Source of the DNA: Camelus dromedarius
Lineage: Eukaryota
Assembly (NCBI RefSeq): GCF_036321535.1
Contig: NC_087436.1
Coordinates: 4,216,001-4,280,000, forward strand
Reading direction: 5' to 3'
Length of the DNA stretch: 64,000 bases
Part shown: piece by piece, positions 3,620 through 64,000 of the stretch
Layout of the letters: each line of letters begins with the position of its first letter
Position numbering within the stretch: the first letter of the stretch is position 1
Position numbers and translations under genes: made by a program
The notes under the pieces: generated by a model
What the model was told of the DNA's origin: nothing
Seen by the model: the letters and a program-made list of their open reading frames with translations, nothing else
The model's database searches: none

Positions 3620-3734
3620 AATTTGGGGGGGGATAATTAGGTATTGATTGACTGATTGTAGGTGCTGGGGATTGAACCCAGGACCTTGTGTATGCTAGGC
3701 ATGCACTCTGCCACTAAGCTGCACCATCCACCCC
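3620..3734 (-). mobile_element. tRNA-derived SINE (camelid Vic-1-like)
   Basis: Minus strand reads GGGGTGGATGGTGCAGCTTAGTGGCAGAGTGCATGCCTAGCATACACAAGGTCCTGGGTTCAATCCCCAGCACC, with A- and B-box-like motifs. Imperfect flanking direct repeats at 3603-3619 and 3733-3749 (14/17). Confidence 0.85.
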
Positions 3735-27797: not shown

Positions 27798-29274
<1,477 letters not shown>

Positions 29275-35910: not shown

Positions 35911-36321
35911 CTTCCTCTGAAGGCCTGTGCATTCCCATGGTAGGAGTGGAGTCTGCAAATGAACACATCATTCTCCTTCCCCAGCTGAACTCCTTCAGCA
36001 TCCTCACCCCTGTCTTCCTCCTGGGACAGTCTCTCTGCCAAGTCCTGCTTCTTTGTCCAGGGAGCCAGGCAACAGACCTCAAGGGAAGGGGTGAGTGCTG
36101 AGGATCGGGGGGCAGCAGGGCCAAAAGACAGGAGCAGGATAAGTCTTTCATTTGTTTTTATTTGATTTTTCAGGCTTGGTTTGGGGAGTGGCAGCTGTTG
36201 GACTGGAAAGCCAAGAAGGATCCACTGAAAGCTGATGGGGCTGGGGGAGGGGAGGGGTGGAAAATTCCAGCAAGGAGACTGGGGTCTGAGACAGAAGGAA
36301 GGAGCAGAGGGGCTTAGCGTG

Positions 36322-36639
36322 TCACCACAGGGCCTGCCGCGGGGCCTGGAGCAGGAACAGCAGCAGGGGCCAGGGTTGTGGGGGCACAAAGCCTGTGCCA
36401 GGCCCCAGTGAGCCAGCAGCTTGCAGAGGCTGGTGTGGAAACTGGGTCTGAGGAGGAGCAGACATGGTATCAGGGAGCGGTGTGAGCCTCTGGATCTCGT
36501 CGATCCAGTCAATGAAGTAGGAGACATTGGTGAAGACGCTGGGGTAGATGGGATGTCGGCAGTCCAAGCCCCAGCTGGCCAGCCCCACCAGAACCCAGAC
36601 GTCGGTAAGGTCACAGACAAGGGGTCCCCCGGAATCACC
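36322..36639 (-). CDS. PRSS47-like serine protease, exon 5 (catalytic Ser, hydrophobic C-terminal tail, stop)
   Basis: Acceptor ctctctttcctAG; GDSGGPLVCDLTDVWVLVGLASWGLDCRHPIYPSVFTNVSYFIDWI...PWPLLLFLLQAPRQALW*; phase 0. AATAAA (minus) at 36157-36162. Confidence 0.93.
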   Translation of the reverse strand, partial: GDSGGPLVCDLTDVWVLVGLASWGLDCRHPIYPSVFTNVSYFIDWIDEIQRLTPLPDTMSAPPQTQFPHQPLQAAGSLGPGTGFVPPQPWPLLLFLLQAPRQALW

Positions 36640-37785
36640 CTAGGAAAGAGAGGGGAGTCAGTGTGGGCGGCTGGGCCAGCGCTGAGAAGACCAGGTAGCA
36701 AGGCCGGGCTCATGAGTGTGTGGCATCCAGGCTCACTGAGGTGGACCTCTTTGAAAGTCCAAACACCAGTGTCCCCCTGCAGCCACAGTCATGCAGGCAG
36801 GCACTGGCATCACACTTCAGGAAGCTCCTGACTGACCCCCAGGATGGCTGTGGATTGAAATCTACAACACGTGGACACTTGCACCCAGGGAGGCCACTGT
36901 GGTCCAGGACAAGGCCGAGAAGGGACAGCTGCCCCAACAGGGCCCAGGAGGACTGGCCTGTGAGTGGAGCCTGGTCAGGTCAAGCCACTTCAGACCCCAG
37001 TTCTTGCAAAACCCTGTCCTGCAGCAACACATCCCCACCTGGATCCTCCCCCTTTCCATTCATTTAGGCCTTTGGCTTTCTCTCAACCTCTTGAGAGAAA
37101 AGAGAGATGCTCTTTCTGAGCAGCCTCAGAAAATGCTCGCCCCCAGGCCTGGCGGGGGCAGCCTGCATTGCTCAGGAAGTGGGAGGGGGTCCCCAGAAAT
37201 CTGCTGGGAATCACTGGAGTCCCAAAATACTGTCAGGGCAGGACCATCTGGTTGAAAATCCTCTCATGTCATCACCCAAAGGGAGGGTCTCACCCTTGGG
37301 CATGGGGGGAGTGGAGCGGGGCCACAGCCATGCCTGCCGCTCTTCCGCTCACCTGTCCACACGCACGTCAAGCATCCAGTGCAGCCTCTGCCCCCGGGCA
37401 TGGGGGTGAAAGGACAAGGCCCCTTCCCCATGGCACTTCTGTCACTAAGCCAGCTAGCCTGCTGTGGTCAGATGTGACGTGTAGAAATAAGCCATGGAAG
37501 GGACAGGACAGGCAGGGTGGGGGCACAAAGACTTCCTGAGCTGAGACTCTAAACAGGAAACAACCTAACTGTCTGATGCAGGAGCAGAGGGACCGGTAAG
37601 TGCAGGCAAGGAGAAGAGGGATGGGCCAGATGGCAGATGCGGGGAGCGGGCTGTGGCGCTGGGAAGGTGGATGGCTCTCGTCTGACTGCTCGCTTTGATG
37701 TTCTCAGTGAAATAAGAAGCAAGACCTCTAGCTGAGAGGGAGGGTGGGGGAAGCAGTGGCTTGAAGGAGAGAGAGGGGTACATCG

Positions 37786-38240
37786 CGTGGCCAGCCGAAA
37801 ATAACCCTCAGAGATGCCCATCTCTAGAGCCTGTGGTTATGTCACCTTATGTGGCAAAGGGACTCTGCAGATGTGGTGGGGTTGGGCATCTTGAAGTAGG
37901 AAGCTCATCTTGGATTACCTGGGTGGGCCCAAGGTAGTCCCAAGGGTCCTCATGGGGAAGGAGGGAGGTGGGAGTCCAGAGTCACATGAGGAGATGTGAT
38001 GACAGAAGCAGAGTTTGGAGTGATGTGCTTTGAGGCTGGAGGAAGGGGCCATGAACCAAGGAATGTGGGCAGCCCCTAAAAAGCCAGAAGAAAGGACACA
38101 TTCTCCCCTAGAGCCTCCAGAAGGAATGTGACTGGCCAGCACCTATGCTTTAGACCTTTGACCACCAGAAACCTAAGATAACAAATTACTGTCATTTTAA
38201 CCACCCACTTTGAGGTGGTTTGTCTCAGCAGCCCCAAGAA
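37786..38240 (+). mobile_element. MaLR LTR (MLT1D/E-like), intronic
   Basis: tatgtcaccttatgtggcaaagggactctgcagatgtg..gggccatgaaccaaggaatgtgggcagcc..ttctcccctagagcctccagaaggaa. Confidence 0.8.
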
Positions 38241-39589
38241 GTCATACATGGGGCTCCTTGGAGACAGGGAATGTGTTGTCATCCTCTCAGCTCCTCCCCC
38301 TGTGGTCCCTGCCTGGAGTGCCCTCGGCCTCCCCACCGTGTACCCACTCCTAGTTGCTCAAGGTCAGAAGAAGGCCTGGTCCTTGTCCACTGCAGGCCTC
38401 GAGGATTCACGCAGATGAGCCATGTGGTTGCCAATATTATGATGGGTTCTGGGCCAGTCTAGAGTAGATGAGAAGGGCTCCAATAGCCTCCTGGCCCTTA
38501 GGGAGCTCTCAGAAGGCAGAGGGAACCCCAACACTAGTATTTCCCATGAGAAGTGAGCTGTGGTTTGCAGTGCTGTAAAGACAGAGCCAACTGTGTGTGT
38601 GTGTGTGCATGCACAGACACACCTGCACGTGTGTGTTGAGTGGGGCCAGGCAGTGGAATCCACCTTGAGAGGAAGGTCTAAGACAGGCCCAGAACAGGTA
38701 CAATTAAGATAGAGGTGGGCAGACCAGGCCAGGAGAATGAAAGCCAGCACTTGTCAAGCACCTACTGAGTGCCAGACACAGCTCTCAAATTGTTATAGGA
38801 ACCTTATTAAGTGGAGGCTGTTAGCGACCCCATTTCATGGGTGAGGAAACTGAGCTGAGGCCACAATCCCCGTAAACAACAGATTAATGCCTGGAACCAG
38901 GTCTGTCCTGCCCCACAGTCTGAGTGCTGAGTGCCCCTGTGGCCCTTCTCTCCTCAGACCTGTTTCTGGGGGCCCTGTGCAGGGGGAGGGACACTTTAGG
39001 GGAGAGAAGAGAGCCCCCTGTTGGAGGGTGGGGGCCAGAGCAGGTGACATGGCAGAAGATGAATCTAGATGGAATCTCTCAGATGGGCTTGGGTGACTGA
39101 AAGGCTGAGAGAGGCAGGAGGGGGTCATCTGCTGGGACTCCTGGGTGTCCAGCTCAGTGGTGTCCTCAAGCTGGGGGGAGGGGGACTAGAGGTCAAGGGC
39201 ACTGTGCATGTCCGGTGGGCAAGCAAAGGGCTCCAGCCCTGCACTCAATGGGCATGACCTCTGCAGGGGAGGGCAGGTGGAGAACAAGGCTGGAAGTGGG
39301 GTCCAGAGTGACAGCCAGATGGGGACTTGGGAGGATGTGGGCTGAGCCCTTTGTTTCACCTCTGGGTGCAGCTGACTCTGTGAGAAGGACGGGCCAGGCC
39401 AGACAGTCAGAAAGTCCACACCATTGATTAGGGCCTGGGAACTGGGAAACCTGGGTCCACCTCCTACCAAGGGGGCAGGTGGCCAAGCTTCCCCCCTCGG
39501 GCTCAGCAGCTCACTGGGCCGTCATGGAACCTGCCATCAGCGCGGCCCTCCCATGGGCCAGGCGCACCTCACCCCTCCTGTGCGGGTCT

Positions 39590-39875
39590 CCTGGGGCTCC
39601 ACAGCATATCACCCCAAACTGAGTGACTCTGCAAACAACAGAAATGTGTCCCCTCACAGTTCCAGGAGCCAGAAGTCTGACATCGAGCATCTCTGTGTCT
39701 GTCTCTGTTCCTATAAGGACACAAGTCATTGGATTCAGGGCCCACGGTAAATTCAGAATGGTGTCGTCTTGAGATTCTTATCTAGTCACATCTGCAAAGC
39801 CTCTATTCCCAATTAAGGTCATATTCTGAGATTCCAAGTGGATACAAATTTAGGGGACACTATCCAACCCACTAC
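39590..39875 (-). mobile_element. MaLR LTR fragment (MLT1-type), intronic
   Basis: tcacagttccaggagccagaagtctga..tataaggacacaagtcattggatt..acatctgcaaag..aaggtcatattctgag. Confidence 0.75.
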
Positions 39876-41260
39876 ACCATCCTTTCCACAACGCCATGAA
39901 GGAGGCCTCAGAGTCCCACACTGCAAATGAGGACACAGGCTCAGGGGGTGAAAAGACCGCCAGAGGTCACAGGGCAGGGACACGTGGCAGAGCAGTGTCT
40001 CTAACTCGAGCCCAACACTCTCCCCTCCACCCCACGGTGCCATCTGTGTGAAAGATGTGATATCTGCTTGGGAGGCTGGGCCCTGCGGGGGAGGCAGTGG
40101 GTTTGGAGTCAGGTTGTACTGCCTTATATTAGGGTACAGCTTTCCCTCTCCGGGCCTGTCTGCCCACTTACAACATGGGGCATGACAAAGAGCAGAAAGA
40201 GAGCTCCACACTCCATATACCCAACAGCAGCCTCATATCTGGAATATAGAAAAATATACAAATATACCAAGAGCCCCTCAAGGAAAAGACAGACAACCCA
40301 AGAGGAAGATGAGAGGGGAAAGAACTGGGAGGGAAGCTTTACAGAAGAAGAGATCCAATGACAATAAACATACGAAAATACATTTAATTTATCATCAGGA
40401 AAATGAAGATTAAAACCACAATGAGACATCAAAATGAGAAAAGATGGAAAGTGCCAAGTGTGGGCGAGGACAGAGTCTCACCCACGGCTGGAACGGGGGC
40501 GTGTGGTGAGCAGTTTGGGGGCATCTGGTAGCATCTGCGAGAGCTGAACACACACATACCTTTTAATCCAACAGTTCTCCTCATGGGCTTGTATGAAATA
40601 GACTATGAAACATTTGGAAGCGAAATGAAACAGAAAGCTTGGGAACTGCTAGAATACCCATCAAAAGCAGAACGGACCACAGAACTCAGTGCCTCCAGCA
40701 GAGTCCTGGGAGGCGATGAGGATGAACAAACTCACTACAGGTGGCAGCAGGGATGCAGCTCACACACAGAAAGCGAGGCCACAGACTGACAACTGGAAAT
40801 AAATTCTACTTACAGAAAACCCATGATCTAAACTGAGGGGTTGCAAGTGAAGGTGGCGGTTTCCCCTGAGTGCTGGTGATGGGAAAGGGACACGAGTGGG
40901 GCCCCGGGGTGTTGGTCAAATGTTGTGTCACTATGTGAAGATTCGTCCACCCCACACCTATGAAAACACTATGAATATACTTTTTTGTAAGTATGTTACA
41001 CCTCAATCAAAACTGTAAAATATGCCTCAAAAACAGACGCTGTCTGAGGTCCTGCCAGTAAGGCTCTCAGGGACAATGGGCTTAGGAAGGGGCAGCTGGG
41101 GGGACGCTTCCAAGGGCTGGAGCCCGGGAAGACACAGAGAGGGAGGAAGCAGGACATCCCGGGGGTCTCCACAAGGAGAGCAGAGGCAACACCCCCACCC
41201 CCCCCAGGAAGCTGAGGCCCTGAAAACACGCAAGGGAGGAACAGAAATGGCCTCACTCAC

Positions 41261-41427
41261 ACGGCAGATGGCCTTTCCTGTCGAGAAGTCCCCAGCACAC
41301 AGCATCTCATCGTGCACAGAGTAGTTCCTGCCTTGGCCAACTCTTTGTTCATATAACATATTGCAGAACTTGTTCTCAATGAGGCCCACCTTTCCCTCCT
41401 GGAGACGGAAGGGCTCGAGCAGAGGCC
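41261..41427 (-). CDS. PRSS47-like serine protease, exon 4
   Basis: Acceptor cctccttgtcctcgcAG; PLLEPFRLQEGKVGLIENKFCNMLY..MLCAGDFSTGKAICR; donor GTgagt; 167 nt, phase 1 to 0. Confidence 0.93.
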
Positions 41428-41719
41428 CTGCGAGGACAAGGAGGACACGAGTGAAGTGCACTGCAGCTCAGCTCTGGGCCGCTCCACGCTCCCCGCTCCT
41501 CTGCCCTGCTCGCCGCTGCGCCCTGAGCCCGGGGTTGTCTCGGCACAGCTGCACTGCAGCGCTGTTCCAGTTCTACCTCTGCCTAAGAAGCCCCCTCCTG
41601 TTTGCTGAACTCCTCCAAACTCATCCTATTCCCTCCACCTCTCTCATGGCAACAGACCACACCTCTTTTATTCCGCAAATCCCACTGGCACATACCCTAC
41701 ACGGGTGCTCAGCAACCAT

Positions 41720-42050
41720 CCACCAGCCTACCTGCCCTTTCACAAACCATCCTATCCATTCTCCACTTGTCTATCATTAACCTTTCCTTCCACCCACCAA
41801 TCCTCCCTCCGTCTACCTAGCTCTCCTTTTGTCCTATTCACCCACTCACCCTTCCATCCATTTGCCCATCCACCCATCTTTTGACCCATCTCTCCATTCT
41901 CCCCTCCACCTACTGATGTGTCCACTCACTCCCATCTGTCTGCCCACCATCCTCTCACCTACGCACCCCCATCTTCCCTTCCCCTCACTCATCCTTCCCC
42001 TCCCCAATCGATCCTCTCATCTGCTCACTTACTTATTCATCTGTCCTTGT
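41720..42050 (+). repeat. Degenerate (CCAT/CCAC)n pyrimidine-rich low-complexity tract
   Basis: Repeated catcc/caccc units and almost no G. Confidence 0.75.
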
Positions 42051-43686
42051 GTTTAGTGTCTTTTAGACACTAGTGATACAGGGAACATACTCAGTTGGGG
42101 GAGACAGGGAAGTGAAGTGAATAGTAGAATGATTTTAGATCTAGTAAGTGGTGTAAAGGCAACAGGGAGCTGTGGTGTTAGGGGTTGTCTGTTTTAGCTC
42201 ATGTGATCCAGTAAAACTTCTCAGAGGAGGAGCTGAATTGTTCATGTAAAGAAATGAGACCTGCCAAGATGAGCAAGTCGTGCCCAGGAGAGCAGGCAGA
42301 GCAAGCGGGGCCGGGAGCCCAGCCACAGCGGCCGGCAGCCCGAGGCAGGTGGGGGTGCAGCACATTCACAGCAGGAAGGAGGCCGGTGGCTGGGCAGGCA
42401 TGAGTGAGGGACGCAGCAGGAGATAAGCACAGAGGGATGGAGGCCGTTATGCAGAGCCCAGGTAGGGCATCTGGACTTTTTTCAAAGCATAAGTGAGAAG
42501 GCACTGAGGGTAGTGAGCAGGGGACTGGCACTACCTCTGCTCTGAAGCACACATCCAGCTGTGTGGGGACTAAAGCAGAGCACACAGGGTGGAGCTGGGA
42601 GACCGGTCTGCAGGTGCAGGCAAGAAGTGACGGGCTCCAGGACCTGGGTGCAGCAGCAGAGCACCTGCCAGGGGCCAGGCCCTGGGCACAGGCTGGGATA
42701 TTAAACCAGCAAGACAGGGTCCCTGCCCTCAAGGAGAAAGCAGTCTCTGTGTGTATCTGCGGGTGTGAGTGTGGTGTGTTGTGTCCGTGTGAGTAATTCC
42801 TCTGTGTGTGTGTGAGTGTGTGTGTGGGGTGTGGGAATACTGGGGACCTGGTTGTCCTATGACAGGGAGACTAACTGACACACTAGCAGGTGCATCCTAC
42901 CCAGTGAAGATAGGGTCCATCCAAAATGCCTGCAGCACCTCTGCTGAGAAACACTGTACCAAATAATTACAAATATATATGCTTCTTCCACCTAATTTTG
43001 CACCATAAGCATTTCCCCAAACCATAAACATTCATTTCTTTAATAAAGACTTTTGCTCATAAGTCTTTGCCTACACTTCTCCTTTTTCAATCCTAAAAAA
43101 CACAAACTTTTTCCCGTATTATTCAGTTCACAGAATAAGCCTACAAAGTAGATAGTTGACCTGGGTGGGGAGAAGAGCACAGTGAGCTCAGAGAGGTCAA
43201 ACACTCTCAAGTCATAATTATTCTAACTTGATCCTGCAGGCTCAAAGGTCAGAGGTCAGAGTTCATAAATGTGTTTTCTCTCCACTTTTCCCAAGTTCCT
43301 CCCATGGCAATGGGAAATGGGGGTGTTTGTCAGTGGCCTGGAATGGACCAGGCCCCAACCATGACTTCTGAGTTGAATCAAGTCATCTGACATCCATGGT
43401 TGATTAAAATCCTGGAGTCAAGCCTTAGAAAGACTCCAAGAACCCAATTCTTGAGTCCAAAAGTCAAAGATTCCCAGACTTGCAGAGATCTGTACTCAGG
43501 GAGCACTGAAACTTTAGGATCACACACTTTCAGAACTAGAACTAGACTAGCCCGGTCCTCTGGAAACGAGGCACAGCTAGCCAAGGTCCAGCGGCCACTT
43601 TGCCTGGGGACCCCTCTGTCCTCCTCCCCTCCCTGCCCCTCCTCCCTGCCCTCATCCACCCTCCGGGTTCTCCCGTGCCCTCTTAC

Positions 43687-43964
43687 TTTCCTCACTGAGC
43701 ATCCCCCAGCCCGTTATCCAGCAGGACGAGTTACTGGGCAGCTGCATGCCAGGAGCTGGGAGGCAGGCGGGGATGATGTAGGAGGTGAAGTTCACAGGAA
43801 AGAGCAGCTGCAACATGGCTATGTCATTCCCAAAGGGATGAAATTTATCAAAGTCTGGGTACATGATAATCCGGCTCACGGGTATCTTCTGGGTGTGCCT
43901 GGTGTGCTGGTACAGCTGGGTGTTTCCTAACAAAACCCGGTAGTTCTCCAGGACGTGAGATTTT
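43687..43964 (-). CDS. PRSS47-like serine protease, exon 3 (catalytic Asp)
   Basis: Acceptor ccttcctcctccAG; KSHVLENYRVLLG..FGNDIAMLQL..IIPACLP..CWITGWGMLSEE; donor GTaaga; 278 nt, phase 2 to 1. Confidence 0.95.
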
Positions 43965-45397
43965 CTGGAGGAGGAAGGAGGCGTAGTCACCATCATCTCT
44001 GAGTGTGAGCCAGCTCTCTTTCCCTGTATCCTCATCTTACTGCCCACACCCCTCTGGACCCCTCTGCCCACCATGATGCCAGGCAGCTTTTGTCTCCCCA
44101 TTTCTAATGGTCAGGAGCCCTTCTTTCTTGAGGCTAATTGATACTCTACTTACAATGTCAGCATATGGCTTCTCCATCACACCCATGAATTGGAGGCGCA
44201 TTGAATCCTAGTGCTGGATGGTGGGGTAGGGGGGTCATCAAATGAAGGCCTTGTGATTGTACACAGGAGGAGTTCTGGTTCAGTCCCAGCTCTAACTTGA
44301 CCCTTCCCAAGGCTCCCTGCAGCCCACCTTCTGGCCCCCACACCTTTCCCGACCCCTCTTTAAGCATCTTCCTGCCCGAGGGCTGCTTATCCACTAGTTA
44401 TAAGCGCTCACAAAAGACTGTTAAATGAGCAAATGAGTGCAGGGAATGGAACCTTGCCTTGTTCCCTGAGTATGGGTGGTGAAACTTCCCACCTCCCTGA
44501 CCTTGAGTGGATGGCTCATCCACCCGGACACCCTCCCCCTCCCCCCCTCAGGAAGCCCCTCCCTCTCCACGCCCACTGGAGCACGGAGCTTCTCACTTGC
44601 CCCCCCACCATGTGGTCTGCTCTTCTTACCCAGGTTCGGCTTTCTCTTTGGACAAGATAGAGACACGGTGAGGTGGGGTCTTACCACCCCTGATGCCACA
44701 GAGGGGCGTGCATACAGCATGGCACAGAGTAGGTGCCGACAGGACTCTGGGTTCTCAAAGCTCCAGCTCCTGGCCCTGGGCTGTGATGCCCCTGCTCCCT
44801 GGAGACCCCTCCTCATGTGTTCAGAAGCTGGGAACTGGGCCAGGCCCAGGAGGGGCAGTGAGTTAGACTCCTCCACAGTCATGTCACTCTCCCAGGGAGC
44901 CCCACCTCCCACCTATGCAGCCTGGCAGCAGGGGTCCCCCCGCTCACACCAGTGACCACAGCTCCTCCTGGGAACTCAGTTTTGCACAAGTGAGCAGAAT
45001 GGCCCAACTGATGGCCATACACACAGTTCTAGTTCCTGCCTAGAGTCTGACACCCAGGAATGTGGGGACACTGAGAAAAAGCTCTGGTCTGAGGTTGGTC
45101 CACACCACATGGCAGCCAGGACCAACACTGCCACTCTCCTGGGGCACATCTGTGTTAGGGGACAGGCACAAGGGCTGAGGGCAGAGCATGAGGATCAGAC
45201 AGGTGAACAAGGAGGACAGTCCAGGTGGAGGGTACGCAGGTCAAAGGCAGGGATGACATGCGTTTGAAGGCCACAGACTGCCCCAGAGAAAAGCCCAGAG
45301 GACTGCTGTGGGATACCCATCACCCCTTTTCTCCCTCTCTCCTGCACCCCCCTCCCCAGCCAGCACCTCTGCTGGCAGCCGAGGCAGGAGGACTCAC

Positions 45398-45581
45398 TTG
45401 AGAAAGCAGTGGGCAGCAGAAACCAGCCAGCGGGAGTTGATGAGGGTGGCTCCACAGACATGCGTGCCCTGGTACAGCAGGCTGGCTTGCCATGGCCACT
45501 GGCCTGCCACCACGTCCCGGCCACCGTAGATCTTCCCTATCACCTTGGGTTTCCCGCATACAGTGGAGACGCCCCTGCCTC
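45398..45581 (-). CDS. PRSS47-like serine protease, exon 2 (activation site, catalytic His)
   Basis: Acceptor tgtgtctctgtcat[49 protein letters not shown]; donor GTgagt; 184 nt, phase 1 to 2. Confidence 0.93.
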
Positions 45582-46532
45582 CTATGACAGAGACACAGGT
45601 AGTGCCCAGGTGCCACTGCCAGGGAGGCCCCGTCCACTTCATAGATGGGAAAAACCAAGGCCAAGCGTCCAGAGGCCTAGCAAAATGACAGGGTGCCACT
45701 GAGAACTGGACAGCAGAGCACAACCCAGCAAGCCCCGTGGGGATGAGGGCTCAGTGGTCTGGTGGGTGGGTGGGGGGAACAAGGGCAGCCACAGCAGATG
45801 ACAGCAGCATCTCCAGGGTGACATCCCTGAGTGAGCCTGCCAAGGTCTGGGCTGTCACAGCCATTACTCCCTCACTTAGCACTCCTCAGTGCCTGCTCTG
45901 CAGAGCCAAGAACTGCAGGCCTCAGAAGCTGCCAATGTTATTTCTTCACAATCATGGTTGCTAAGGGCTTGTGCCCCCTCCACGTCATCCCAGTATCTCA
46001 GGGAAATAGGTTCACAGGCAGAGCTCTGTGGTGTTGTGTGACCTGAGGAAAGTCACTCCCCCTCTCTGACAGGATCCTCCATTTCTAAAGAGGGAGTGGA
46101 CTAATGAAGACAGCCCTGGCTTTAGGACCTACACTTGGGAGGGCAGGGGTGTGCCCAGGCCCCCTGAGAGTGGGGATGCCGGTCCAGGGCCTGTGCTCCC
46201 AGGGCCTCATGGAGGGAAGTGAGACCCCTGGGCCCCACACTAAGGGCCACTTATTCAGCAGTCCCGGAGCTTCCTTCCAGCCAGCCTCCTAGCGTCAGGG
46301 CCAGACCCTGCTACCTGCCCAGTTCACAGCCCCACAAAGCTCCTGGGTCGGTTCCCACCCAGAGACCCCACTGTGGGGGCCTCTGACCCACCTGTGTTGA
46401 GGTGATCTCTGGGCTGCCTGGCTGGAGGGAAGGGCAACAGAAGACGAGGCCCCCAGGCCCTGGTCACAGCCGCGCCCCCCTGAGGCCCTCCTGTGTAACC
46501 CAACCCAGCCTCGCACTGAGGCCTCAACGCAC

Positions 46533-46743
46533 CTGCGGCCCCCGGAGCCAACGGCTGCGCGTCAGGGGTCAGAGCGCCGCCGTCCTCCGGCCGCCCCGCG
46601 CCTGGGGCCCGGCCGGGCGCCACCGAGGCCCTGGCGGAGGACCCCCGCAGCTCTAGGGTGGCCGTTGGCGGCAGCAGCAGCAGCAGCCAGAGGAGGGCTG
46701 CAGGCTGGCCTCGGCCTTCGGGGAGCCACGCCCCCGTGCCCAT
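46533..46743 (-). CDS. PRSS47-like serine protease, probable exon 1 (signal peptide and pro-region)
   Basis: ATG at 46743; MGTGAWLPEGRGQPAALLWLLLLLPP.. hydrophobic signal; donor cagGTgcgt; 211 nt, phase 1, compatible with exon 2. Sits in a small CpG-rich patch. Confidence 0.75.
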
Positions 46744-46911
46744 TGTCAAGGTTGCTGACCCCCGCCTGACCCCTGTCTGACCCCCCACCTGACCCTGCCC
46801 TGACCCAGCCCTGAGTGGCCCCTGAGCCTGGGCCCTGACCCTGTCCGAGTCCATCCCTGATCCCATTCTGCCCTTATTAACTTTAAAGAGCTCTACTGAG
46901 TTGTTATTTAT

Positions 46912-48531
46912 TTATTTATTAACACTTTTTATTGATTTATAATCATTTTACAATGTTGTATCAAATTCCAGTGTACAGCACAATTTTTCAGTTATACATG
47001 AACATATATATATTCATTGTCACATTTTTTTCTCTGTGAGCTACCATAAGATTTTGTATAAATTTCCCTGTGCTATATACAGTATAATCCTGTTTACCTA
47101 TTCTACAATTTTGAAATCCCAGTCTCTCTTCCCACCCACCCACCCTCTTGGCAACCACAAGTTTGTATTCTATGTCTGTGAGTCTATTTCTGTTTTGTAT
47201 TTATGCTTTGTTTGTTTTTGTTTTTGTTTTTGTTTTTAGATTCCACATATGAGCAATCTCATATGGTATTTTTCTTTCTCTTTCTGGCTAACTTCACTTA
47301 GAATGAAAGTCTCCAGGAACAACCATGTTGCTGCAAATGGCGTTATGTTGTTGGTTTTTATGGCTGAGTAGTATTCCATTGTATAAACATACCACATCTT
47401 CTTTATCCAGTCATCTGTTGATGGACATTTAGGCAGTTTCCACGTCTTGGCTATTGTAAATAATGCTGCTATGAACACTGGGGTGCAGGTGTCATCCTGA
47501 AGTAGGGTTCCTTCTGGATATATGCCCAGGATTCAGAAAGGTAGCAGGTTACAAGATTAACATTCAAAAATCAGTTGCATTTCTTTACACTAATGATGAA
47601 TCAACAGAAAAAAAGTAAAGAAACAATCCCCTTTAAAATAGCACCCAAAGTAATAAAGTACCTAGGAATAAATCTAACCAAGGAGATGAAAGAATTATAC
47701 ACAGAAAACTATAAACCATTGATGAAGGAAATTAAAGAAGACTTTAAAAAATGGAAAGATATCCCATGCTCTTGGATTGGAAGAATCAATATTGTTAAAA
47801 CGGTCACACTGCCCAAGGCAATCTACAGATTTAATGCAATCCCTATCCAATTACCCAGGACATATTTCACAGAACTAGAAAAAATCATAATAAAATTCAT
47901 ATGGAACCATCAAAGACCTAGAATTGCCAAAGCATTACTGAAGAGAAAGAAAGAGGCTGGAGGAATAACTCTCCCAGACTTCAGACAATACTATAGAGCT
48001 ACAGTCATCAAGACAGCATGGTATTGGTACAAAAACAGACATATAGACCAATGGAACAGAAAATAGAGCCCAGAAATGAACCCACAAACTTTTGATCAAC
48101 TAATCTTTGACAAAGGAGGCAAGAATATACAATGGAATAAAGACAGTCTATTCAACAAATGGTGTTGGGAAAACTGAACAGCAGCATGTAAAAGAATGAA
48201 GCTAGAACACTCCCTTACACCATACACAAAAAAAACTCAAAATGGATCAAAGACTTAAACATAAGACAAGATACAATAAACCTCCTAGAGGAAAATACAG
48301 GCAAAACATTATCTGACATCTCAAAAATGTTCTCCTAGAACAGTCTACTCAAGCAATAGAAATAAAAGCAGGAATAAACAAATGGGACCTAATGAAACTT
48401 ACAAGCTTCTACAAAGCAAAGGAAACCATAAGTAAAACAAAAAGACAACCTACAGAATGGGAGAAAATTTTTTCAAATGAAACTGACAAAGGCTTGATCT
48501 CCAGAATATATAAGCAGCTCATATGACTTAA
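46912..48531 (-). mobile_element. 5'-inverted (twin-primed) truncated L1
   Basis: 3' part on the minus strand at 46912-47530, ORF2 piece on the plus strand at 47531-48531. TSD TACTGAG(T/G)TGTTATTTAT at 46894-46911 and 48532-48549. Confidence 0.92.
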
Positions 48532-48819
48532 TACTGAGGTGTTATTTATATACTATGAAGCTCACTTATTACAAAGGACAATTCAGTGATTTTCAGTACA
48601 TTTTTATTTCCTTTATTTTTATTTAAATACACTTTTTATTTTAGAATAGTTTGAGATACATGAAAAAGTTGCAAAGACAATGTAAAGAGTTCCCATATCC
48701 CTCTCACCCAGTTTCCCCTAATGTTAAGATCTTATATTACTATAGCCCATTGGTGAGCCAATAGTGACACATTAATATTAACTGAAGTCCATTCTTCCTC
48801 TCTTTTTCATTTTTTAAGG

Positions 48820-49270: not shown

Positions 49271-49634
49271 TTATGCCGGTTATAAAATTCTGGTTTTTGA
49301 AGTGAAAAAAAAAAGTGAAAGAAGGGCAGCAAATGGCAAAATATCCTTCTTTCTTATGGGTGAGCTGTATTCCATTACATATATGTATGCTGCATCTTCA
49401 CTATCTGTTCAACTATTGACATGCACTTAGGATGCTTCCATATCTTGGCAATTATAAATAATGCTGCTGTTAATAGCAGGGTGTATGTATCTTTTTTTAA
49501 TTAATTCTTATTTTGTGGTTGGCTTTATTCCTTTGATAACTATGTAAGCTTAAAAAGAGAAAGTTCTAAACGTTCTTAGAAACAGTGAACAGTACATAGA
49601 TGTAAATTTAAAAAATATATATGCAGTAAAAAGA

Positions 49635-54340: not shown

Positions 54341-55949
54341 AGGAGTTTGTAGATCAAAAGCCCTGAGAATGGCTGCGTTAGGAAAGAACTATTTTCCTTG
54401 AAAAACAAAAGCACGTGCATAGTAGTTGTATTTCTCTGAAACTATTGCTCCAAAGTATATGGTTGCAATCATTTGTATTAATAGTAACTTTTAACCAAAA
54501 TAGCTTTTATTTCACAAAAAACTAGAGGGTAAGTAATTGTGAATTTTATGATATACACTGACTTTTTAGCAGATGAGCAAAGCTTATGAATGCATGTAAC
54601 ACAACTTTCTACAGCTTCTAAGGGCTTCTCAAAGTTGCAAAAATAAGCACATTAATTAACAGACCCAAAGAAATAGCCTCTTTTTAGCATTTAAAATATA
54701 AAACAAAAGCATATAAACTGAAAAGTATGCTTAGTAACCAATGTTTCATTGTCATATCTTAGAAATGATTTAGGCATCCAATGAATACCTGAGAATTAAT
54801 TTAAGTCTAAGGTTTAAGTTACCTAAATATAGTCTTCAAGCTAACAAACTATAAAATGTAACTACTCTTGGAAATCAGAATAATAATTCGATTTGGTTGA
54901 GCACAAATTTACACTTTTTATAATCGTAAACATTCAATGGAGTTAATACTAGCTTATTTGCTCAATAAGCCAGTATACATTTAGGAAGAACATTCCCAAC
55001 TAGAGTGAGATACAGGCTTGCATTACTCTTAACACTGGGAAGTCAGGGCCACTAGTTCCAAGAACAGTTACCTAGGTCCACCTTTTGAGCAGGAGCCAGG
55101 ATGGGAGTGGTGGATGCAAAACATTGACTGGCATCTCCAGCATATGTCTATGGTCTATTTATACAACAGAAAATAAAACTTTTCATAGTAAAATCTATAA
55201 ATGTTTCCATTCAACCACCACAATCCTTTTAATTTTCAATCACACTTTAAATTTCATCAAAGGTGTCGATTCTAAGCTCAGTGGCCCTGGAAATACATTC
55301 AGCCAAACTGTATTTGAAGTATGTTTTTGTGAGAGCTGGAGGTTAATTTCACCTATTTGAAAATTAGATTCTTACTTTTTAAATTATGCAGTTATTTTTC
55401 TATAATAACTCATCATGAAAGAAGATAGGAACTTAGTATCTTATTATTTCTAAAAAAAATTCTTTTCAGTTTTTGGCTTCTCTCTGAATAGACGGTCTGT
55501 GCCAAGTGTTGAACTTATCTCTGTGTAGATTAAATGCCCCAGAGGGCACGTAAGGGGGGATAACCTGTGACTCTGTTGCTAGTCAGGAGACCTACTGAGT
55601 GGGATTTTTAAAATAGTACAACTTTTGTGTGTGCCCTAGGAAGATGGGCCACTTCAGATCTAGCTAGAGGAAAGAAGTGGAGATTTTCTAAGTCTCATAT
55701 TCAGACATAAAAAAGAACGACAGAAATCAAAGGAGGCTTCCAATTACTTATTATTTTGTAAGAGAATCACGAATTAAAACACAGGGACCTGGAAATAAGA
55801 ACTTTGTAAGACTTTGTAATCTTTGCAGGTCACTCCTGCTTGTGATTTTTGTTGCTCCTTAAAATCTTTTTTTAATTATTATTTTTGTGGGGGAGTGTGA
55901 TTAGGTTTATTTATTCTTTTTTTGTCTGCCTATTCTTTTTGTTTTTACT

Positions 55950-56236
55950 TTTTTAAATTGAGTTATAGTCATTTTATAATGTTGTGTCAAACTCCAGTGT
56001 AGAGCACAATTTTTCAGTTATACATGAACATACATATATTCATTGTCGCGTTTTTTTTTACTGTGAGCTACCACAAGATCTTGTATATATTTCCCTGTGC
56101 TATACAGTATAATCTTGTTTATCTATTCTACATACACCTGCCAGTATCTACAAATATCGAACTTCCAGTCTGTCCCTTCCCACCCTACTCCCCCTTGGCA
56201 ATCACAAGTTTGTATTCTATATCTATGAGTCTGTTT
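55950..56236 (-). mobile_element. L1 3' end fragment
   Basis: Closely similar to 46930-47190 (caatttttcagttatacatgaacat..gtgagctacca.aagat..ttccctgtgctatacag). Confidence 0.85.
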
Positions 56237-56567
56237 CTACACATATCAGTCCTGCAAACCTGGGGCAGCAGAGGCTGCCCCCAAGCCAGGCCACTGGGGA
56301 GATGGGAGTACACACAAGGACCTGCACAGGACAGCCCCACTCCCGCCACTGCTGCCCCCGCCCGCTTACCACACCACGCCAGCCTCCTGGGAGCACACTG
56401 ACCTAAAGACATGGGTGCACTGAACCTGGGGCAGCAGAGGCCACTCCCAGGTCAGGCCATGGGGAAGATGGGAGCAAATGACTGGCTCCCAAGGGGCAGC
56501 CCTCCTCCTCCCACCACTGCTACCTCTACCTTCCTCCCAAGCCCCCTGACCACACTGAGCCCAAGGT
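56237..56567 (+). repeat. Two GC-rich monomers (core ACCTGGGGCAGCAGAGGC..AGATGGGAG)
   Basis: Cores at 56258 and 56424, 166 bp apart. Confidence 0.85.
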
Positions 56568-58510
56568 CTTACTAAAGTGGGTAGAGATGGAACATATCTC
56601 AACATAATAAAAGCTATTTATGACAAACCTACAGCCAGCATAACACTCCTCAGCAAAAAGCTGAAAGTCTTTCCACTAAAATTGGGAACAAGACAAGGAT
56701 GGCCTCTCTCATCACTTCTATTCAACATAGAAAGTAGTGGAAGTCCTAGCCACAACAATTAGACAACAGAAGGAAATATAAAGGGATCTAAATTGGAAGA
56801 GAAGAGGTAACATTGTCATTATATGTGGATGACATGAAACTATATATAGAAAACCCTAAAGCCTCTGCATAAAAACAACTAGAGCTAATCGAACAACTCA
56901 GCCAGGCAGCAGAAGACAGTATCAACATACAGAAATCAGTGGCATTTCTTTACACGAAAGTAATAATCCCTTTTAAAACCGCATCCAAAAAATAAAATAC
57001 TTAGGAATACATCTGGCCCAGGAAGTGAAAGAATTCTATGTGGAGACCCACAAAACCCTGACTAAGGAAATGAAAGAGGACTTAAAGAAATGCAAAGACA
57101 TCCCGTGTTCTTGCACTGGAAGAATCCATAATGTCAAAATGGCCACGCTGCCCAAAGCGACCTACAGACTTAATGCTATCCCTATCACATTACCCAGGAC
57201 ATTTTTTCACAGAACTACAACAAACCATCCTAAAATTTATATGGAATCACAGAAGACCTGAAGTTACCAAAGCATTATTGAAGAAAAAGAACGAAGCTGG
57301 AGGAATAACCCTCCCAGGCTTCAGACAATACTACAGAGTTATAATCAAAACAGCACGTTATTGGTACAAAAACAGACATATGGGATCAATGGAACAGGAT
57401 AGATAGTCCAGAAATAAACCCACACACGTGTGGTCAATTAACCCATGATGAAGGAGGCAAGAACACACAGTGGAGGAAAGACAGTCTCTTCAATAAGTGG
57501 TGCTGGGAAAGCCAGACAGCTACCTGTAAAAGACTGACATTAGAACATTCTCCAACATCATGTACAAAAATAAACTCAAAATGGATTAAAGACCTCAATG
57601 TACAACCAGATACTGTAAAACTCCTAGGGGAAAACACAGGCAAAACACTCATGGACATACATTAATGCAGTGTATTTTTTAAACCAGCTCCTGGACTACT
57701 GGAAATAAAAGCAAAAATAAGCAAGTGGGATCTAATTAAACTCAGACTTCTGCACAACTAAGGATACCATTCACGAAACGAAAAGACAACCTACAGAATG
57801 GGAGAAAACCTTTGCAAATGATGTGACTGACAGGAGACCAATTTTCAAAACATACAAACAGCTCATACACCTTCATAGCAAAGAAACAAGCAACCCAATC
57901 CAAAAATGGGCAGAAGACCTAAACAAACAATTCGCCACAGAAGACATTCAAATGGCCAATAGGGCACATGAAAAAAAATGCTCAGCATCACTCATTGTCA
58001 GAGAAATGCAGATCAAAACTACAATGCGATATCACCTTACACCAGCCAGAATGGCCACCATTGAGAAGTCTACAAGTGACAGATGCTGAAGAGGGGGTGG
58101 AGAAAAGGGAACCCTTCGACATTGTGGGTGTGAGTGTAGATTGGTGCAGCCACGTTGGAGGACAGTATGGAGGTTCCTTAAAAAAATGAAAACAGACCTA
58201 TCACATTATCCAGCAATCCCACTCCTGGGAACATATCCAGAGAAAAATAAAATTCAATAACACACATGCACCCCAATGTTCACAGCAGCACTATTTACAA
58301 CAGCCAAGACATGGAAACAACCCAAATGTCCATCGACAGATGCCTAGATAAAGAAACCATGGTACATATATACAATGGAACACTACTCAGCCATAAAACC
58401 ATGCCACTTGCAGCAACATGGATGGACCTGAAGACTGTCATTCTAAGTGAAGTGGGCTGGAAAGAGAAAGAAAAATGCCATATGTTATTATTTATATGAG
58501 GAATCAAAAC
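56568..58510 (+). mobile_element. L1 3' half, copy A of the composite unit
   Basis: ORF2 peptides [37 protein letters not shown].., [13 protein letters not shown]; many disablements. Confidence 0.93.
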
Positions 58511-58839
58511 AATTATAACAATAATAATAAGGCTATAAATAGACTAGTTTTCATTTTGATTTCTTCAATATGTGTAAGCACATCTGACTGTCCTTTATGA
58601 TCGTATTACCATATTCTGTTGATTCTTATTTTGCAGTTGGCTTTAGTCCTTTGATAAATATGCAAGTTGAAAAACCTAATCTCTTCTTAGAAATGGTAAG
58701 TAGTACATTTATGTAAACTAAAAAAAAAAAGTGCAGTATACTGTATATACATATCTATATGCAATATAACATTTATGTGCAGTTGCACTGTAATAATTCT
58801 ACCTAATAAAACTGGAAAAGTTGGGGGGGTGGTGAGGGA

Positions 58840-59670
58840 ACAGACATACGGATCAAGGGAACAGAATATAGGGTCCAGAGAGAAAACCCACAAACTTCTG
58901 GTCAATTCATCTTCGATAAACAAGGCAGGAACAACATAGAGTGGAGTAAAGACAGTCTCTTCAGCAAATGACACAGGGGAAACGGGACAGCTGCATGGAA
59001 ATCAGTGAAATTAGAAGACTCCCTCACACCGTGCACAAAAATAAATTCAAAATCGCTTTAGGACTTAAACATAAGACAAGACATTACACGCCTCTTTCAA
59101 GAACACATACGCAAAACATCTGACACACACGTCAGCAACACTCTCCTAGGGCAGTCCACCCCAGCAAACAGACATGAAGGCACAGATACACAAACCAATG
59201 GGACCAAACTGAATTCATCAGCTTTTGCACAGCAAAGGAAACCATAAGCAACACAAAAGGACAACCTATGAGATGGGAGAAAATATTCGCAAAAGATGAG
59301 ACTGACAAGGGGTTAATTTCCAGAATATATAAACAGCTCATACAACTGAATAACCAAACATCAACCCAATCCAAAAATGGTCAGAACTAAACACACCTTT
59401 CTCCAGTGAAGACATACAAATGGTCAACAGGCATATGAAAAAAAATCCTCAGTATCACTAATTATCAGAGAAATGCAAATCAAAACTACAACGAAGTACA
59501 TCACCTCGCACCAGTCAGAAAGGCCGTCATTCAAAAGTCCACAAAGGAGAAATGCTGGAGAGGCTGCGGAGAAAAGGAAGCCTCTGACACTGCTGCTGGG
59601 AATGCAGTTTGGTGCAGCCATTGTGGGAAACAGTAGGGGCATTACTCAAAAGACTAAAAATAGACTTCTC
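58840..59670 (+). mobile_element. L1 ORF2 3' fragment
   Basis: agacagtctcttcagcaaatg..MQIKTTTKYITSHQ..; ends at actaaaaatagactt. Confidence 0.9.
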
Positions 59671-61109
59671 AAAAGCTTTTGATCTCTGTGGCAGGGTGAC
59701 CAGCTCCCAAAGGCCCAGGCCTCACCCCTTATTCTGCCTCAGGTCAACTGTGACACAGAAGGTCCAGGGTGGCCTCCACCGGCCAGGCTTGTCCACCTAC
59801 ACAGGAAGGCCACAACCTGAGGGCCAGTGGGAGGTGCTCCCTGGCTGTCCAGCTGCCTCCCACCTCCAGAAGTTGCACCCGCTTTCCCAAACCCGGGTAT
59901 AAGCGGCAGCAAAGACTACTAATGAGGGGGCTGGGGCACCACGAACCAGGGCGGGGGACCGGACCCGCCTCAGGGTCCTAACAGGACATGCGGCCTGGAT
60001 CTCACCCACACACCCCTCCCTGTGTGCCTCCCCAGCTGCACAGCCCAGGCCTCACCCGTAGGCTCCCTGACCTGCACGCCCCCACCAGCGCCCCCTTACC
60101 TGCCGGGTGAAGGCAGCAGAGGCCACAGAGGCGGCCCAGATCCGAGGCCGTGTTCCTCCACGGGTAGCTGGTCCAGGAGAACAGGGCTCCTGCCCAGTTT
60201 CCACTGCTCTGGGCGGGCTCAGACATCCAGGCTTGCATGCCTGCCCCGCCTCGCCTCTGCTGGACCACAGAGGGGAAGCTCAGGCTGGGGTTCCTGCAGT
60301 GTGGGACAAGGAGAGTGGGGCTGGGTGGGGCCGGGTGGGGAGGGCTGGTGGGGAGGGCCGAACCTGCGGCCCGCCCCTCCAGGTCCCCAGCCCCAACGCC
60401 CCCACCCTGCCACCGACTGGGTCCTGATACTCAACCAGTACCACCACGGGCCCTGGACCAGGCCACACCCCCAGCCGCACCCCCTGCTTGCAGTGCCCCA
60501 CCCAGTGACTGCCTCCTCACCTCTGGCCAGGCCTGGTCCCTGACCTGGACCCCCAAGACAAAGCTCCTTCTCCTTACACTGAGGTCCCTGCCCTCACACT
60601 CCCCACACACCAAACTGACCCCTCATGCCCCACCCGGGGTCCCCTCCACCATCTCAAGATGGTCCCCCTCACCTTTCACCCTGGGACTACCGCCCACCCC
60701 TCAGTGGGGTCCCCTCACTCCCAGCAGCCCTTCACCCCTCAGCCTTTCCCCCCTCGCCCCGAGTGCACCCCTAACCCAAGCTGACCCTCTCACCCCTCAC
60801 CCCGCGCGGGCAGGGCAGTCCAGCTCCAATCACCATGGTGACAGCCACCAAACAAGGATCCTGAGCGTGTGCGGGGTGCGCAGTCAGCTGTCCCAGGCTC
60901 AGGGCGCGGGCAGGCGGGGCTGGAGGCAGCTGCAATTCCTCAGCTTGCAAAGCACTTCTCCCTGTCAGCCTGCTCCTGAGAGGCAGGCGCGGGGCGGTTT
61001 AGGGGACTTGGCAGTGGCAACAGCAGGATTGGGGCTGCCACACGCTATAGTAGGTATCTGCTCCCATTTCTCACGTCACCGCTGCAGCCCCCAAACACTG
61101 AATGCACAG

Positions 61110-61650
61110 TGCCCGCCCCTCAGGAGCAGCATGACCTGAGGACAAGCCTCCAGGGAACCTGGGGCAGCAGAGGCCACCACCAGGCCAGGCCCCTGGGAAG
61201 ATGGGAGCAAACCCACAGGGAGGCACAGGGCAGCCCCCTTCTCCCGCCACCGAAGCTGCCTCCTCTCAGTCTTCCTCGCTCCCTAACCAAACTTCACAGG
61301 CCTCCAGAGAGCAGGCTGACCTACACATGTGAGTCCTGCAAACCTGGGGCAGCAGAGGCTGCCCCTAGGCCAGGCCACAGGGGAGATGGCACTAAATCCA
61401 AGGGCTTGCAGGGGGAAGCCACCCTCCCACCACCCCCGTCCCCTGACCACAGCATGTCAGCCTCCTAGGAGGTGACTGACCTAAAGACAAGGGTCCAGTG
61501 AACCTGGGGCAGCAGAGGCAGCTCCCAGCCCCGGCCACAGGGGAGATGGGAGCAAATGACTGGCTCCCGAGGGGCAGCCCCTCTCCTCCCACTGCCGCCG
61601 TTACCTCTGCTACCATTATCCTAGCCCCCTGAACGCACTGAGCCCGTGGT
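61110..61650 (+). repeat. Three GC-rich monomers (same family as 56237-56567)
   Basis: Cores ACCTGGGGCAGCAGAGGC at 61157, 61342 and 61502 (spacing 185 and 160 bp). Confidence 0.85.
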
Positions 61651-63778
61651 CTTACCAAAGTGGGTATACAGGAAACATATCTCAACATAATAAAACCTAT
61701 TTATAATAAACCCACAGCCAGCATAATACTCTACCAAAATACTCTGCCAAGAAAAGCTGAAAACCTTGCCACTAAAATCTGGAACAAGACAAAGATGCCC
61801 ACTCTCACTACTTCTATTCAATGTAGTATTGGAAGTCCTAGCCAGAGCAATAAGACAACAACAAGAACAACAACAAAAAAGAAATAAAAGGGATCTAAAT
61901 TGGAAGAGAAGAGGTAAAACTGTCATATGTGTGGATGACATGATACTATATATAGAAAACCCTAAAGGCTCCAAACAAAAACGACTAGAGCTAATAAAAC
62001 AATTCAGCAAGGTAGCAGGACACAACATCAACATACAGAGACCAGTGACATTCCTTACACGAAAGAAATAATTCCTTTTAAAACTGCATTCAAAAAAAAT
62101 AAAATACTTAGGAATAAATCTGGCCCAGGAAGTGAAAGACATAGGCAGAGACCTACAAACCACTAACTAAGGAAATTAAAGAAGACCTAAAGAAATGGAA
62201 AGCTACCCCATGTTCTTGCACTGGAAAAATTAATATGGTTAAAACGGCCATACTACCCGAAGCATTCTACAGATTTAATGTGATCCCTATCAAACCACCC
62301 AGGACATTTTTCACAGAATTAGAACAAATCATCCTAAAATTTATATGGATCACAAAAGACCCAGAATTACCAAAGCATAACTGAAGAAAAAGAATAAAGC
62401 TGGAGGAATAACCCTCCCAGACTTCAACAACACTACACAGCTACAAACAGAACAGCATGTACTGCTACAAAAACAGACCTACAGGATCCATGGAACAGAA
62501 TAGAGAGCCCAGAAGTAAACCCACAAACTTCTGGTCAATTAGTCTTTGACGAAGGAAGCAAGAATATACAATGGAGTAAAGACAGTCTCTTCAGCAAATG
62601 GTGTAGGGAAAACTGGACAGCTGCATGTAAGTCAATGAAGTTAGACTACTTCCTCCCACCTTACACAGAAATAAATTCAAAATGGCTTAAATACTTAAAC
62701 ATGTAGACAACACTATAAACCTCTTAGAAGAAAACAAAGGCAAAACATTATCTCACATACTTCTCAGTAATCTTCTCCTAGGGCAGTCTACTCAAGCAAC
62801 AGAAACAAAAGCACAAATAAACAAACAAATGGGACCTAACTGAGCTTATTTACAAGCTTTTGCACAGCAAAGGAAACCATAAGCAAAACAAAACGACAAA
62901 CTACAGAATGGGAGAAAACATTTGTAAATGATTCAACTGACAAAGACTTAATTTCCAGATTATATAATCAGCTCATAAAGCTTAATAACAAAAAACAAAG
63001 AATCCAATCCAACAATGGGCAGAAGATCTAAATAAGCATTTCTCCAATGAAGACATACGAATGACCAATAGGCACATGAAAAAATGCTCAGTATCACTAA
63101 TTATCAGAGAAATGCAAATCAAAACTACAATGAGGTATCTCCTCACATCAGTCAGAATGTCCATCACTTAAAAGTTCATGAAGATAAATGCTGGAGAGGG
63201 TGTGGAGAAAAGGGAACCCTCTTACACTGCTGGTGGGAATGTAGTTTGGTGTAGCCATTATGGGAAACAGTATGGTAATTCTTCAAAAAACTAAAAATAG
63301 ACTTACCCTATGATCCAGCAATTCCATTTCTGCTATATATCCAGAGGGAACTCAAATACAAAAAGATACCTGCACCACCATATACAATAGCCAAGACATG
63401 GAAGCAAGTTAACTGAATTTTCAGCAACAGATGACTGGATATAGATGTGGTATATTTATCCAATGGAATACTGCTCTGCCATAAAAAAGGATAAAATAAT
63501 GCCATTTGCAGCAACATGGTTTGACCTAGAGATCATCATTCTAAGTGAAGTGAGCCAGAAACAGAAAGAAAAATACTGTATGGTATCAGTTGTATGTGCA
63601 ATCTAAAAAAAAGACACTATGAACTCACCTACAAAACAGAAGCAGAGTTGCAGAGTTAGTAAACAATCTTACAGTTACCAGGGAAAGGGGTGGGGGGAGG
63701 ATAAATGTGGAAGTTTGAGATTTACAAATGTTAGTCACAGAAACCTACGTTCAGTATCTGATAATAACCTCTAATGGA
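61651..63778 (+). mobile_element. L1 3' half, copy B of the composite unit
   Basis: TYLNIIKPIYNKPTA, GTRQRCPLSLLLFNVVLEVLARAIRQ, DDMILYIENPK; continues into the 3' UTR and stops before a polyA tail. Confidence 0.93.
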
Positions 63779-63889
63779 AAAGCCACTACAGCCACCAACT
63801 GAGGAAGCAAGAGAAGAAAGGTAAGTGAGCTATCCTGGGCTATAGCCCAGTACTCCTAAAGTCCTGGGCCCGCTGCTGCACTGCCCCCC

Positions 63890-64000
63890 GACCACACGGC
63901 GCCCTCCTCCCAGGAGCAGATTGACGTGAAGATATGCGTCCTGCCAACCTGCGGCAGCACAGCCCGCCCCCAGGAGAGATGGGAGCAAGTCCACCTGCCC
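63890..64000 (+). repeat. Further diverged GC-rich monomer running off the window
   Basis: ccaggagcagattgacgtgaaga..cctgccaACCTGcGGCAGCAcAG..gagatgggagcaag; core at 63947. Confidence 0.75.

Follow-up and report, generated by a model that had tools for sequence, protein, structure and literature searches.

A GC-rich monomer array fused to the 3' half of L1 ORF2 in the dromedary genome, probably representing a small non-autonomous L1-derived family

We examined a 64,000-nucleotide (nt) stretch of the Camelus dromedarius genome (NC_087436.1, positions 4,216,001–4,280,000 of the forward strand; hereafter the window) and describe a composite repeat in which a GC-rich head of tandem monomers is fused to the 3' half of open reading frame (ORF) 2 of an L1 retrotransposon. 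The composite, with its head at no fewer than three loci, probably represents a small non-autonomous L1-derived family. The two copies within the window, A and B, are old, dead composites that have one single fusion in common; all copies seen are dead and no present function is implied. An earlier note, made from the letters of the window, had described a two-copy unit. Its composite nature was borne out by our analysis, and what had been overlooked is an inverted monomer block to the left of B and an inverted L1 tail to the left of A. In the following, A, M and B designate the L1 pieces listed under these letters in Table 1, D is the L1 at 31.9–34.9 kb on the minus strand and E is the L1 at 46.9–48.5 kb. 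D is an ordinary L1 of the window, the sequence of which begins at ORF2 residue 416; residues are numbered according to the dog ORF2 reference (1275 residues).

The junction and the L1 body of the two copies

In both copies, the switch from GC-rich sequence to L1 ORF2 occurs at the identical base (56568 in A and 61651 in B), in agreement with the earlier note, and D reads on as ordinary ORF2 upstream of the equivalent point. The junction corresponds to ORF2 residue 617, which lies within the reverse transcriptase (RT); A and B are without ORF1, the endonuclease and the first half of the RT. Splicing was considered as the origin of the junction and rejected. In a spliced L1 retrocopy (SpIRE), the parental ORF2 would be expected to show an AG splice acceptor ahead of the junction; in D, the only copy that could be consulted, the 39 nt preceding the equivalent site contain no AG.

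The ORF2 deletion of roughly 25–30 nt that had been noticed in both copies was found to measure 27 nt (56955 in A and 62060 in B) and is indeed absent from D and E. The copies also have in common a 3-nt deletion (57343/62445) that is not in D or E, and a 1-nt insertion (57383/62484) that is not in M, D or E; all three indels fall within the first 820 nt of L1 sequence. Grouping of A with B received 96% support over the first 462 comparable columns, with 12 informative sites versus 7 and 4 for the other arrangements. The block common to the two copies is about 2.3 kb in length (56237–58512 versus 61321–63610) and is 77% identical. The reading frame of ORF2 has decayed in both, as evidenced by seven stops and seven frameshifts in A and five stops and 18 frameshifts in B. 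When a mid-ORF2 peptide of copy A was used in a protein search, the best 120 matches were generic L1 proteins at 65–77% identity, with no near-identical family member among them. For a change of ~10% per branch, a generic mammalian rate would give 40–50 million years for the A/B divergence. At the camel rate quoted in PMC8605555, the same divergence would amount to roughly 20 million years; the camel–llama split has been put at ~16.3 million years ago (PMC12337305).

The L1 body of A is a mosaic. Its identity to both B and D falls to 66–72% at approximately 57410–57790, where A carries outgroup-type residues at positions 933, 943, 946, 975, 997 and 999 and B has the type seen in the L1s of the window; two of these six residues are shared between E and A. 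From its residues, we read this tract as the product of conversion, or of a template switch, from an older-type L1. Whether fragment M belongs to the element is uncertain: it shares a 4-nt insertion with B (informative sites 11:7:1) and lacks the 1-nt insertion of A and B. The AT-to-GC substitution rate is 0.10–0.12 in A and M versus 0.054–0.066 in B, D and E, and the excess relative to D and E combined gave Fisher p values of 0.005 for A, 0.001 for M and 0.90 for B. This excess fits either biased gene conversion at the locus or change accumulated in the source lineage. CpG was also seen to be raised in A and M (56568–59670) and not in B, D or E.

Copy A looks like a twin-primed (5'-inverted) retro-insertion. 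Its two L1 segments point in opposite directions and almost adjoin in L1 coordinates; numbered along D, the sense part stops at 124 and the inverted tail begins at 166, leaving a gap of at most 41 nt. None of the four other short tail fragments in the window begins in this interval (starts at 68, 206, 267 and 341). The inverted tail, which carries an A-rich end, adjoins the cut monomer of A with 2 nt of microhomology. A profile search of the window detected no monomer beyond the inverted tail or at the right end of A, a finding that speaks against the array having received a later insertion and equally against a simple inversion of the DNA. In human and chimpanzee, ~30% of L1 insertions have the 5'-inverted form (PMC2912911). 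B was rejected as the source of A: the inverted tail of A is only 61% like that of B and 82% like that of E, hence B was not the template. The piece at 55865–55915, just outside the poly(A) of A, resembles the tail of a camelid short interspersed element (SINE) without its head; it may mark a deletion at the target site of A.

The monomer head and a third locus in the wild camel

The monomers of 160–185 bp described previously are real. Five of them are present in A and B; when these were cut at 152–186 nt and scored against shuffles, all 10 pairs gave z values of 11–30, with identities of 67–84% and a GC content of 62–66%. The counterparts of the second and third monomers (M2 and M3; M1–M3 are not to be confused with fragment M) are 82% and 84% identical between A and B, as compared with 67–80% for different monomer types, which indicates that the array had diversified before A and B separated. 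In the profile search (eight matches with E<0.01 among 14 listed), matches were confined to 56.2–56.5, 60.9–61.6 and 63.9–64.0 kb of the window. The last of these is block C, the further monomer that had been noticed after copy B; it is genuine (E 1.6e-17), though more diverged, and resembles the inverted block most (73% over 110 nt, z 7). For this block, a hairpin around a six-base palindrome near 61045 was considered and discarded, as the block runs on to ~61075.

The open frame of the monomers was used as a query in a HMMER scan of 1.84 billion representative proteins and returned two matches. One of them, P0242, is an unrelated repeat protein that has no match in the window and was attributed to chance. 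The other, hereafter P0241, is XP_032327510.1 (LOC116660940), an uncharacterised gene model of Camelus ferus that forms a cluster of one. P0241 spells the inverted monomer block, M1, M2 and the start of M3 in the order found in B. Residues 48–84 matched the inverted block of B with 43 bits, versus a shuffle maximum of 19 and 18 bits for reversed M1. Within the monomer frame, identity is 85% between P0241 and A and 68% between P0241 and B (P0241 residues 166–228), and 64% between A and B; in simulations, 85% amino acid identity corresponded to ~7% nucleotide difference (3–12%). The match to B ends at about 60920–60930 while P0241 itself continues in inverted monomer, showing that B is cut within the block and that no flank is shared. 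Upstream of 60915, a shared flank was looked for and rejected (12 bits versus a shuffle mean of 12–13), and P0241 residues 1–50 did not match the spacer at 59671–60915.

P0241 is not the orthologue of B, being too far diverged, and M1 stands where A has its inverted tail. Its record is 25,176,080 bp in length, presumably a whole chromosome, and the sequence piece of the window exceeds 70 Mb. Judged from the predicted protein, a third locus with a related head is present in the wild camel genome, and by these distances its closest relative is A, from which it would have separated after the A/B split. Because P0241 nests with A, this locus probably inherited the junction as well, assuming a rough clock. 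The possibility raised in the earlier note, that only two copies exist, does not hold for the head; this result concerns the head only. The LOC116660940 model itself very likely corresponds to a chance open frame through repeat monomers; its structure model has a pLDDT of 0.41 and the ESM Atlas gave nothing usable. The composite repeat would in this way account for at least one spurious gene model.

Searches with shorter probes gave little. A 19-nt monomer core had no match among viral contigs, and its four matches in metagenomes were all chance occurrences in unrelated GC-rich DNA. In a search of runs with words from the spacer and the head, 14 of 24 rows among the matches listed (DNA or unlabelled; two organisms) held 0.47–0.67 of the words and six RNA or RNA-like rows among the matches listed held 0.10–0.26, values that are no evidence on expression or copy number. 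Neither Rfam nor ARAGORN gave a match inside the composite element. No description of it was found in the literature search, which did not cover Repbase or Dfam; an uncurated consensus may exist.

Table 1. Coordinates of the composite copies and associated features in the window
Feature	Position	Strand	Evidence
Inverted L1 3' untranslated region (UTR) and A-rich tail, read as 3' segment of copy A	55939–56238	−	82% identity to tail of E, 61% to tail of B
Copy A head: 5'-cut M2, M3 and tether of ~35 nt	56239–56567	+	82%/84% identity to M2/M3 of B; profile matches; 85% amino acid identity to P0241
Copy A body	56568–58505	+	ORF2 residues 617–1275, dead, with shared 27-, 3- and 1-nt indels
Tract inside A, read as from another, older-type L1 lineage	57410–57790	+	A–B identity 66–72%; outgroup-type residues
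Fragment M	58836–59670	+	ORF2 residues 893–1167, closest to B
GC-rich spacer, single copy in the window	59671–60915		No second copy; 4/4 open frames tested without Pfam match
Inverted monomer block at 5' end of copy B	60917–61075	−	Profile E 4e-4 and 2e-3; also in C. ferus locus
Copy B head: M1, M2, M3 and tether; spacing 185 and 160 nt, 64% GC	61085–61650	+	Monomer pairs; profile matches
Copy B body	61651–63780	+	ORF2 residues 617–1275, dead, plus internally deleted 3' UTR ending without poly(A)
Block C: diverged monomer running off window end	63830–64000	+	Profile E 1.6e-17

Other features were observed in the window. Read by eye, the spacer contains exon-like pieces on the minus strand with donor-like sites near 60100 and 60800; a relationship to the nearby protease gene as its paralogue was rejected, as no match was found. 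This gene, a multi-exon member of the trypsin family, occupies 35800–46900 on the minus strand (PF00089, E 1.6e-15 at 43655–44110). An intronless frame of 160 amino acids at 28542–29024 on the minus strand, without a Pfam match, is probably a retrocopy and, we presume, resembles RALGAPB. An old 128-nt repeat is present at 58619–58738 and 49501–49628 (75% identity), and a tRNA-like match at 3657–3728 on the minus strand (Rfam, 30.7 bits) is a SINE head.

Origin of the composite and competing explanations

The evidence leans slightly toward an old camelid non-autonomous element that was moved by L1 proteins in trans. A non-autonomous chimeric retroelement had already been suggested in the earlier note and proved to be the better reading, given the 5'-inverted appearance of A and the same head at a third locus. 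The element would be ~3 kb in length and would consist of (i) GC-rich monomers as the head, preceded by a fixed inverted block, (ii) the back half of ORF2, fused once at residue 617, and (iii) an L1 3' UTR with poly(A). Transcription by RNA polymerase II, driven by the head or by a promoter lying farther upstream, would have yielded a polyadenylated transcript, and L1 proteins from intact elements may have copied this RNA in trans by target-primed reverse transcription; L1 is able to mobilise any poly(A) RNA (PMC5786205). Copy A would have arisen by twin priming from a later subfamily, to which the C. ferus copy would also belong, and B would be an older, eroded copy. The L1 body would have swapped pieces with other L1s over time, giving the foreign tract in A and the differing tails of A and B. 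By analogy, the head is most simply viewed as having been the 5' UTR of a camelid L1 now extinct, in which case the composite would be an internal-deletion (bipartite) L1; tandem motifs are frequent in mammalian L1 5' UTRs, which are described as having 52–62% GC and a YY1 site at the start (PMC5381506). A more far-reaching version is possible rather than probable: a long-lived, uncatalogued family of ORF1-less bipartite L1s with at least two subfamilies, in which monomers from the 5' UTR of an extinct L1, a fixed inverted block that may have served as a two-way promoter and a dead back half of ORF2 would have spread in trans over millions of years, the 3' end being renewed from whichever L1 was then active.

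A number of observations weigh against mobilisation in trans. The junction is present in both copies in which this part is visible, and in these two copies only; the P0241 protein ends before it, and the grouping of A with B is lost beyond 57400. For A, no target-site duplication reached significance, the best candidate (13 nt with two mismatches) being equalled by 30 of 300 random flanks; for B, the 3' end of which is cut and without poly(A), none was found. E (46894–48549), a textbook 5'-inverted L1 insertion, was used as the control, and its 18-bp target-site duplication with one mismatch was equalled by 1 of 300 random flanks. With respect to an origin from a 5' UTR, the monomers are CpG-poor (observed/expected ratio 0–0.33), their GC content lies just above the range described for L1 5' UTRs in PMC5381506, and the full YY1 motif had no match after 55800, where only a short core of the motif occurs. 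There was no sign of a high copy number, either in the HMMER scan, with its single true match, or in a word-based protein search with the monomer frame, in which none of 245 candidates was retained. Retroposition of the inverted block needs a transcription start upstream of the block. Lastly, A, M, B and C all lie within 8 kb, and no such piece occurs in the other 55 kb; this clustering points to a local process and is left unexplained by a retroelement.

Such a local process could be a duplicon, in which a deleted L1, or an L1 inserted beside a GC-rich minisatellite, would have spread by segmental duplication and gene conversion with no RNA stage. We regard this as unlikely. The four related pieces within 8 kb, the missing target-site duplications of A and B and an inverted block that would merely be inherited all agree with it, and the mosaic L1 body together with the doubled AT-to-GC rate in A and M fits conversion; however, no flank is common to A and B, nor to B and P0241, and the inverted tail of A fits twin priming, whereas a plain DNA inversion would leave a monomer at the other end of A, where none is present. 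We are equally doubtful of an explanation in which the monomers would have served an ordinary autonomous camelid L1 as its 5' UTR, P0241 and C would be normal element starts, and a single deleted element would have left the junction in no more than two or a few dead copies. P0241 does stop before the junction, C runs off the window end with its continuation outside, and mammalian L1s often have tandem motifs in their 5' UTR (PMC5381506). Against this explanation, P0241 is nearer to A than B is, so that it falls within the group carrying the junction, barring a second origin of the deletion or a conversion of the head, and a fixed inverted block is not among the L1 5' UTR features in the available part of PMC5381506.

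An L1-derived macrosatellite with a unit of ~5.08 kb, or ~2.8 kb as measured from B to C, is highly improbable. The sense parts do share their orientation, C follows directly after B, and L1-derived satellites have precedents in cetaceans (cited in PMC9659126) and in alpaca, where the primers of VpaSat01-3503 (PMC13751797) map to L1 ORF2. The 5.08-kb spacing between A and B given in the earlier note is real as a distance, but only the block of ~2.3 kb is common to the two copies; the intervening 2.6 kb is not repeated and has no counterpart before A. The lead into C is unlike the spacer, the comparison giving scores that were reached by 32 and 47 of 300 controls, and Tandem Repeats Finder detected no array in the element region for periods of up to 500. 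The copies are as diverged as unrelated L1s and have not been homogenised: identity is 79% for A–B, 79% for A–D, 81% for B–D, 83% for B–E and 84% for D–E, with pairs involving D and E spanning 77–84%. A macrosatellite of 5.08-kb units was consequently abandoned. VpaSat01, with 69.5% AT, is in addition hard to reconcile with a head of 64% GC.

Comparison with known L1-derived and bipartite elements

The camel element most likely works like a bipartite ORF-less long interspersed element (LINE), such as RIME, NARTc, Bov-A, WALLSI3 and the Vingi derivatives (PMC5786205). Like these, it combines a 5' head with the 3' part of a LINE, has no usable ORF and needs an autonomous partner; exchange of tails, as we propose for the camel element, is also known among them (PMC5786205). 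The 3' end of a partner is represented by ORF2 residues 617–1275 and the 3' UTR, with the A-rich end in A, and no functional ORF is left, given the loss of ORF1, the endonuclease and the N-terminal half of the RT and the stops and frameshifts in the remainder. Unlike the elements listed in that source, the camel element is derived from L1 and has 2 kb of ORF2 left; its head is only a candidate for the 5' end of its partner. Because target-site duplications were looked for and not found for A or B, with a positive result for the control, we have not filed the element in any family. Repbase names exist for camelid L1s, namely L1-1_Vpa and L1-2_Vpa (PMC6726744, PMC10362595).

Membership in HAL1 (half-L1) was rejected, since the head joins ORF2 residue 617 directly and ORF1 is not retained. 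SVA and LAVA also contain a GC-rich tandem repeat within an L1-mobilised composite, as does the camel element; they are primate-specific and built of other parts, and the likeness is by description only. HAL1 resembles the camel element in being a mammalian non-autonomous L1 derivative (PMC5753468, PMC5786205), but it keeps ORF1 and loses ORF2, whereas the camel element is without ORF1 and keeps a dead 3' half of ORF2. The monomer-bearing L1 5' UTRs of mouse (~200 bp) and the tandem motifs of horse, elephant and opossum (PMC5381506) are similar in that GC-rich tandem monomers precede the L1 coding sequence, with a short tether in between; in the camel element, no ORF1 follows, the full YY1 motif is missing and an inverted block leads the array. 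Copy A shares with the twin-primed L1 insertions described in PMC2912911 two opposed segments that are nearly contiguous in the RNA and a short microhomology, and differs from them in having no significant target-site duplication.

L1-derived satellites, among them the common cetacean satellite (cited in PMC9659126) and VpaSat01-3503 (PMC13751797), have L1 3' sequence at the core of the repeated unit, as does the camel element, whereas no homogeneous head-to-tail array is present in the camel window. VpaSat01-3503 belongs to a camelid satellite catalogue of 2026 (PMC13751797) and appears to be L1-derived, as its primers map to ORF2 and its first 400 nt, read by eye, resemble an L1 3' end. Its forward primer differs from the foreign tract of A by one mismatch and from the other L1s of the window by four to six. 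The main text of PMC13751797, in the form available, was seen not to contain the words transposable, retrotranspos or interspersed.

If the family is real and sizeable, it would fill a gap among the known kinds of LINE. L1 acts preferentially on its own RNA, and known half-elements such as HAL1 keep ORF1, which is thought to aid them; if an ORF-less L1 derivative amplified, a promoter and a poly(A) tail would suffice. Tail exchange and promoter capture would, moreover, become datable in a lineage with poorly curated repeats. ORF-less bipartite LINEs are listed only from the RTE, Ingi, Vingi and R2 clades in the parts available of Kojima (2018; PMC5786205), and the camel element, if our reading is true, would add to these four a bipartite ORF-less derivative from the L1 clade.

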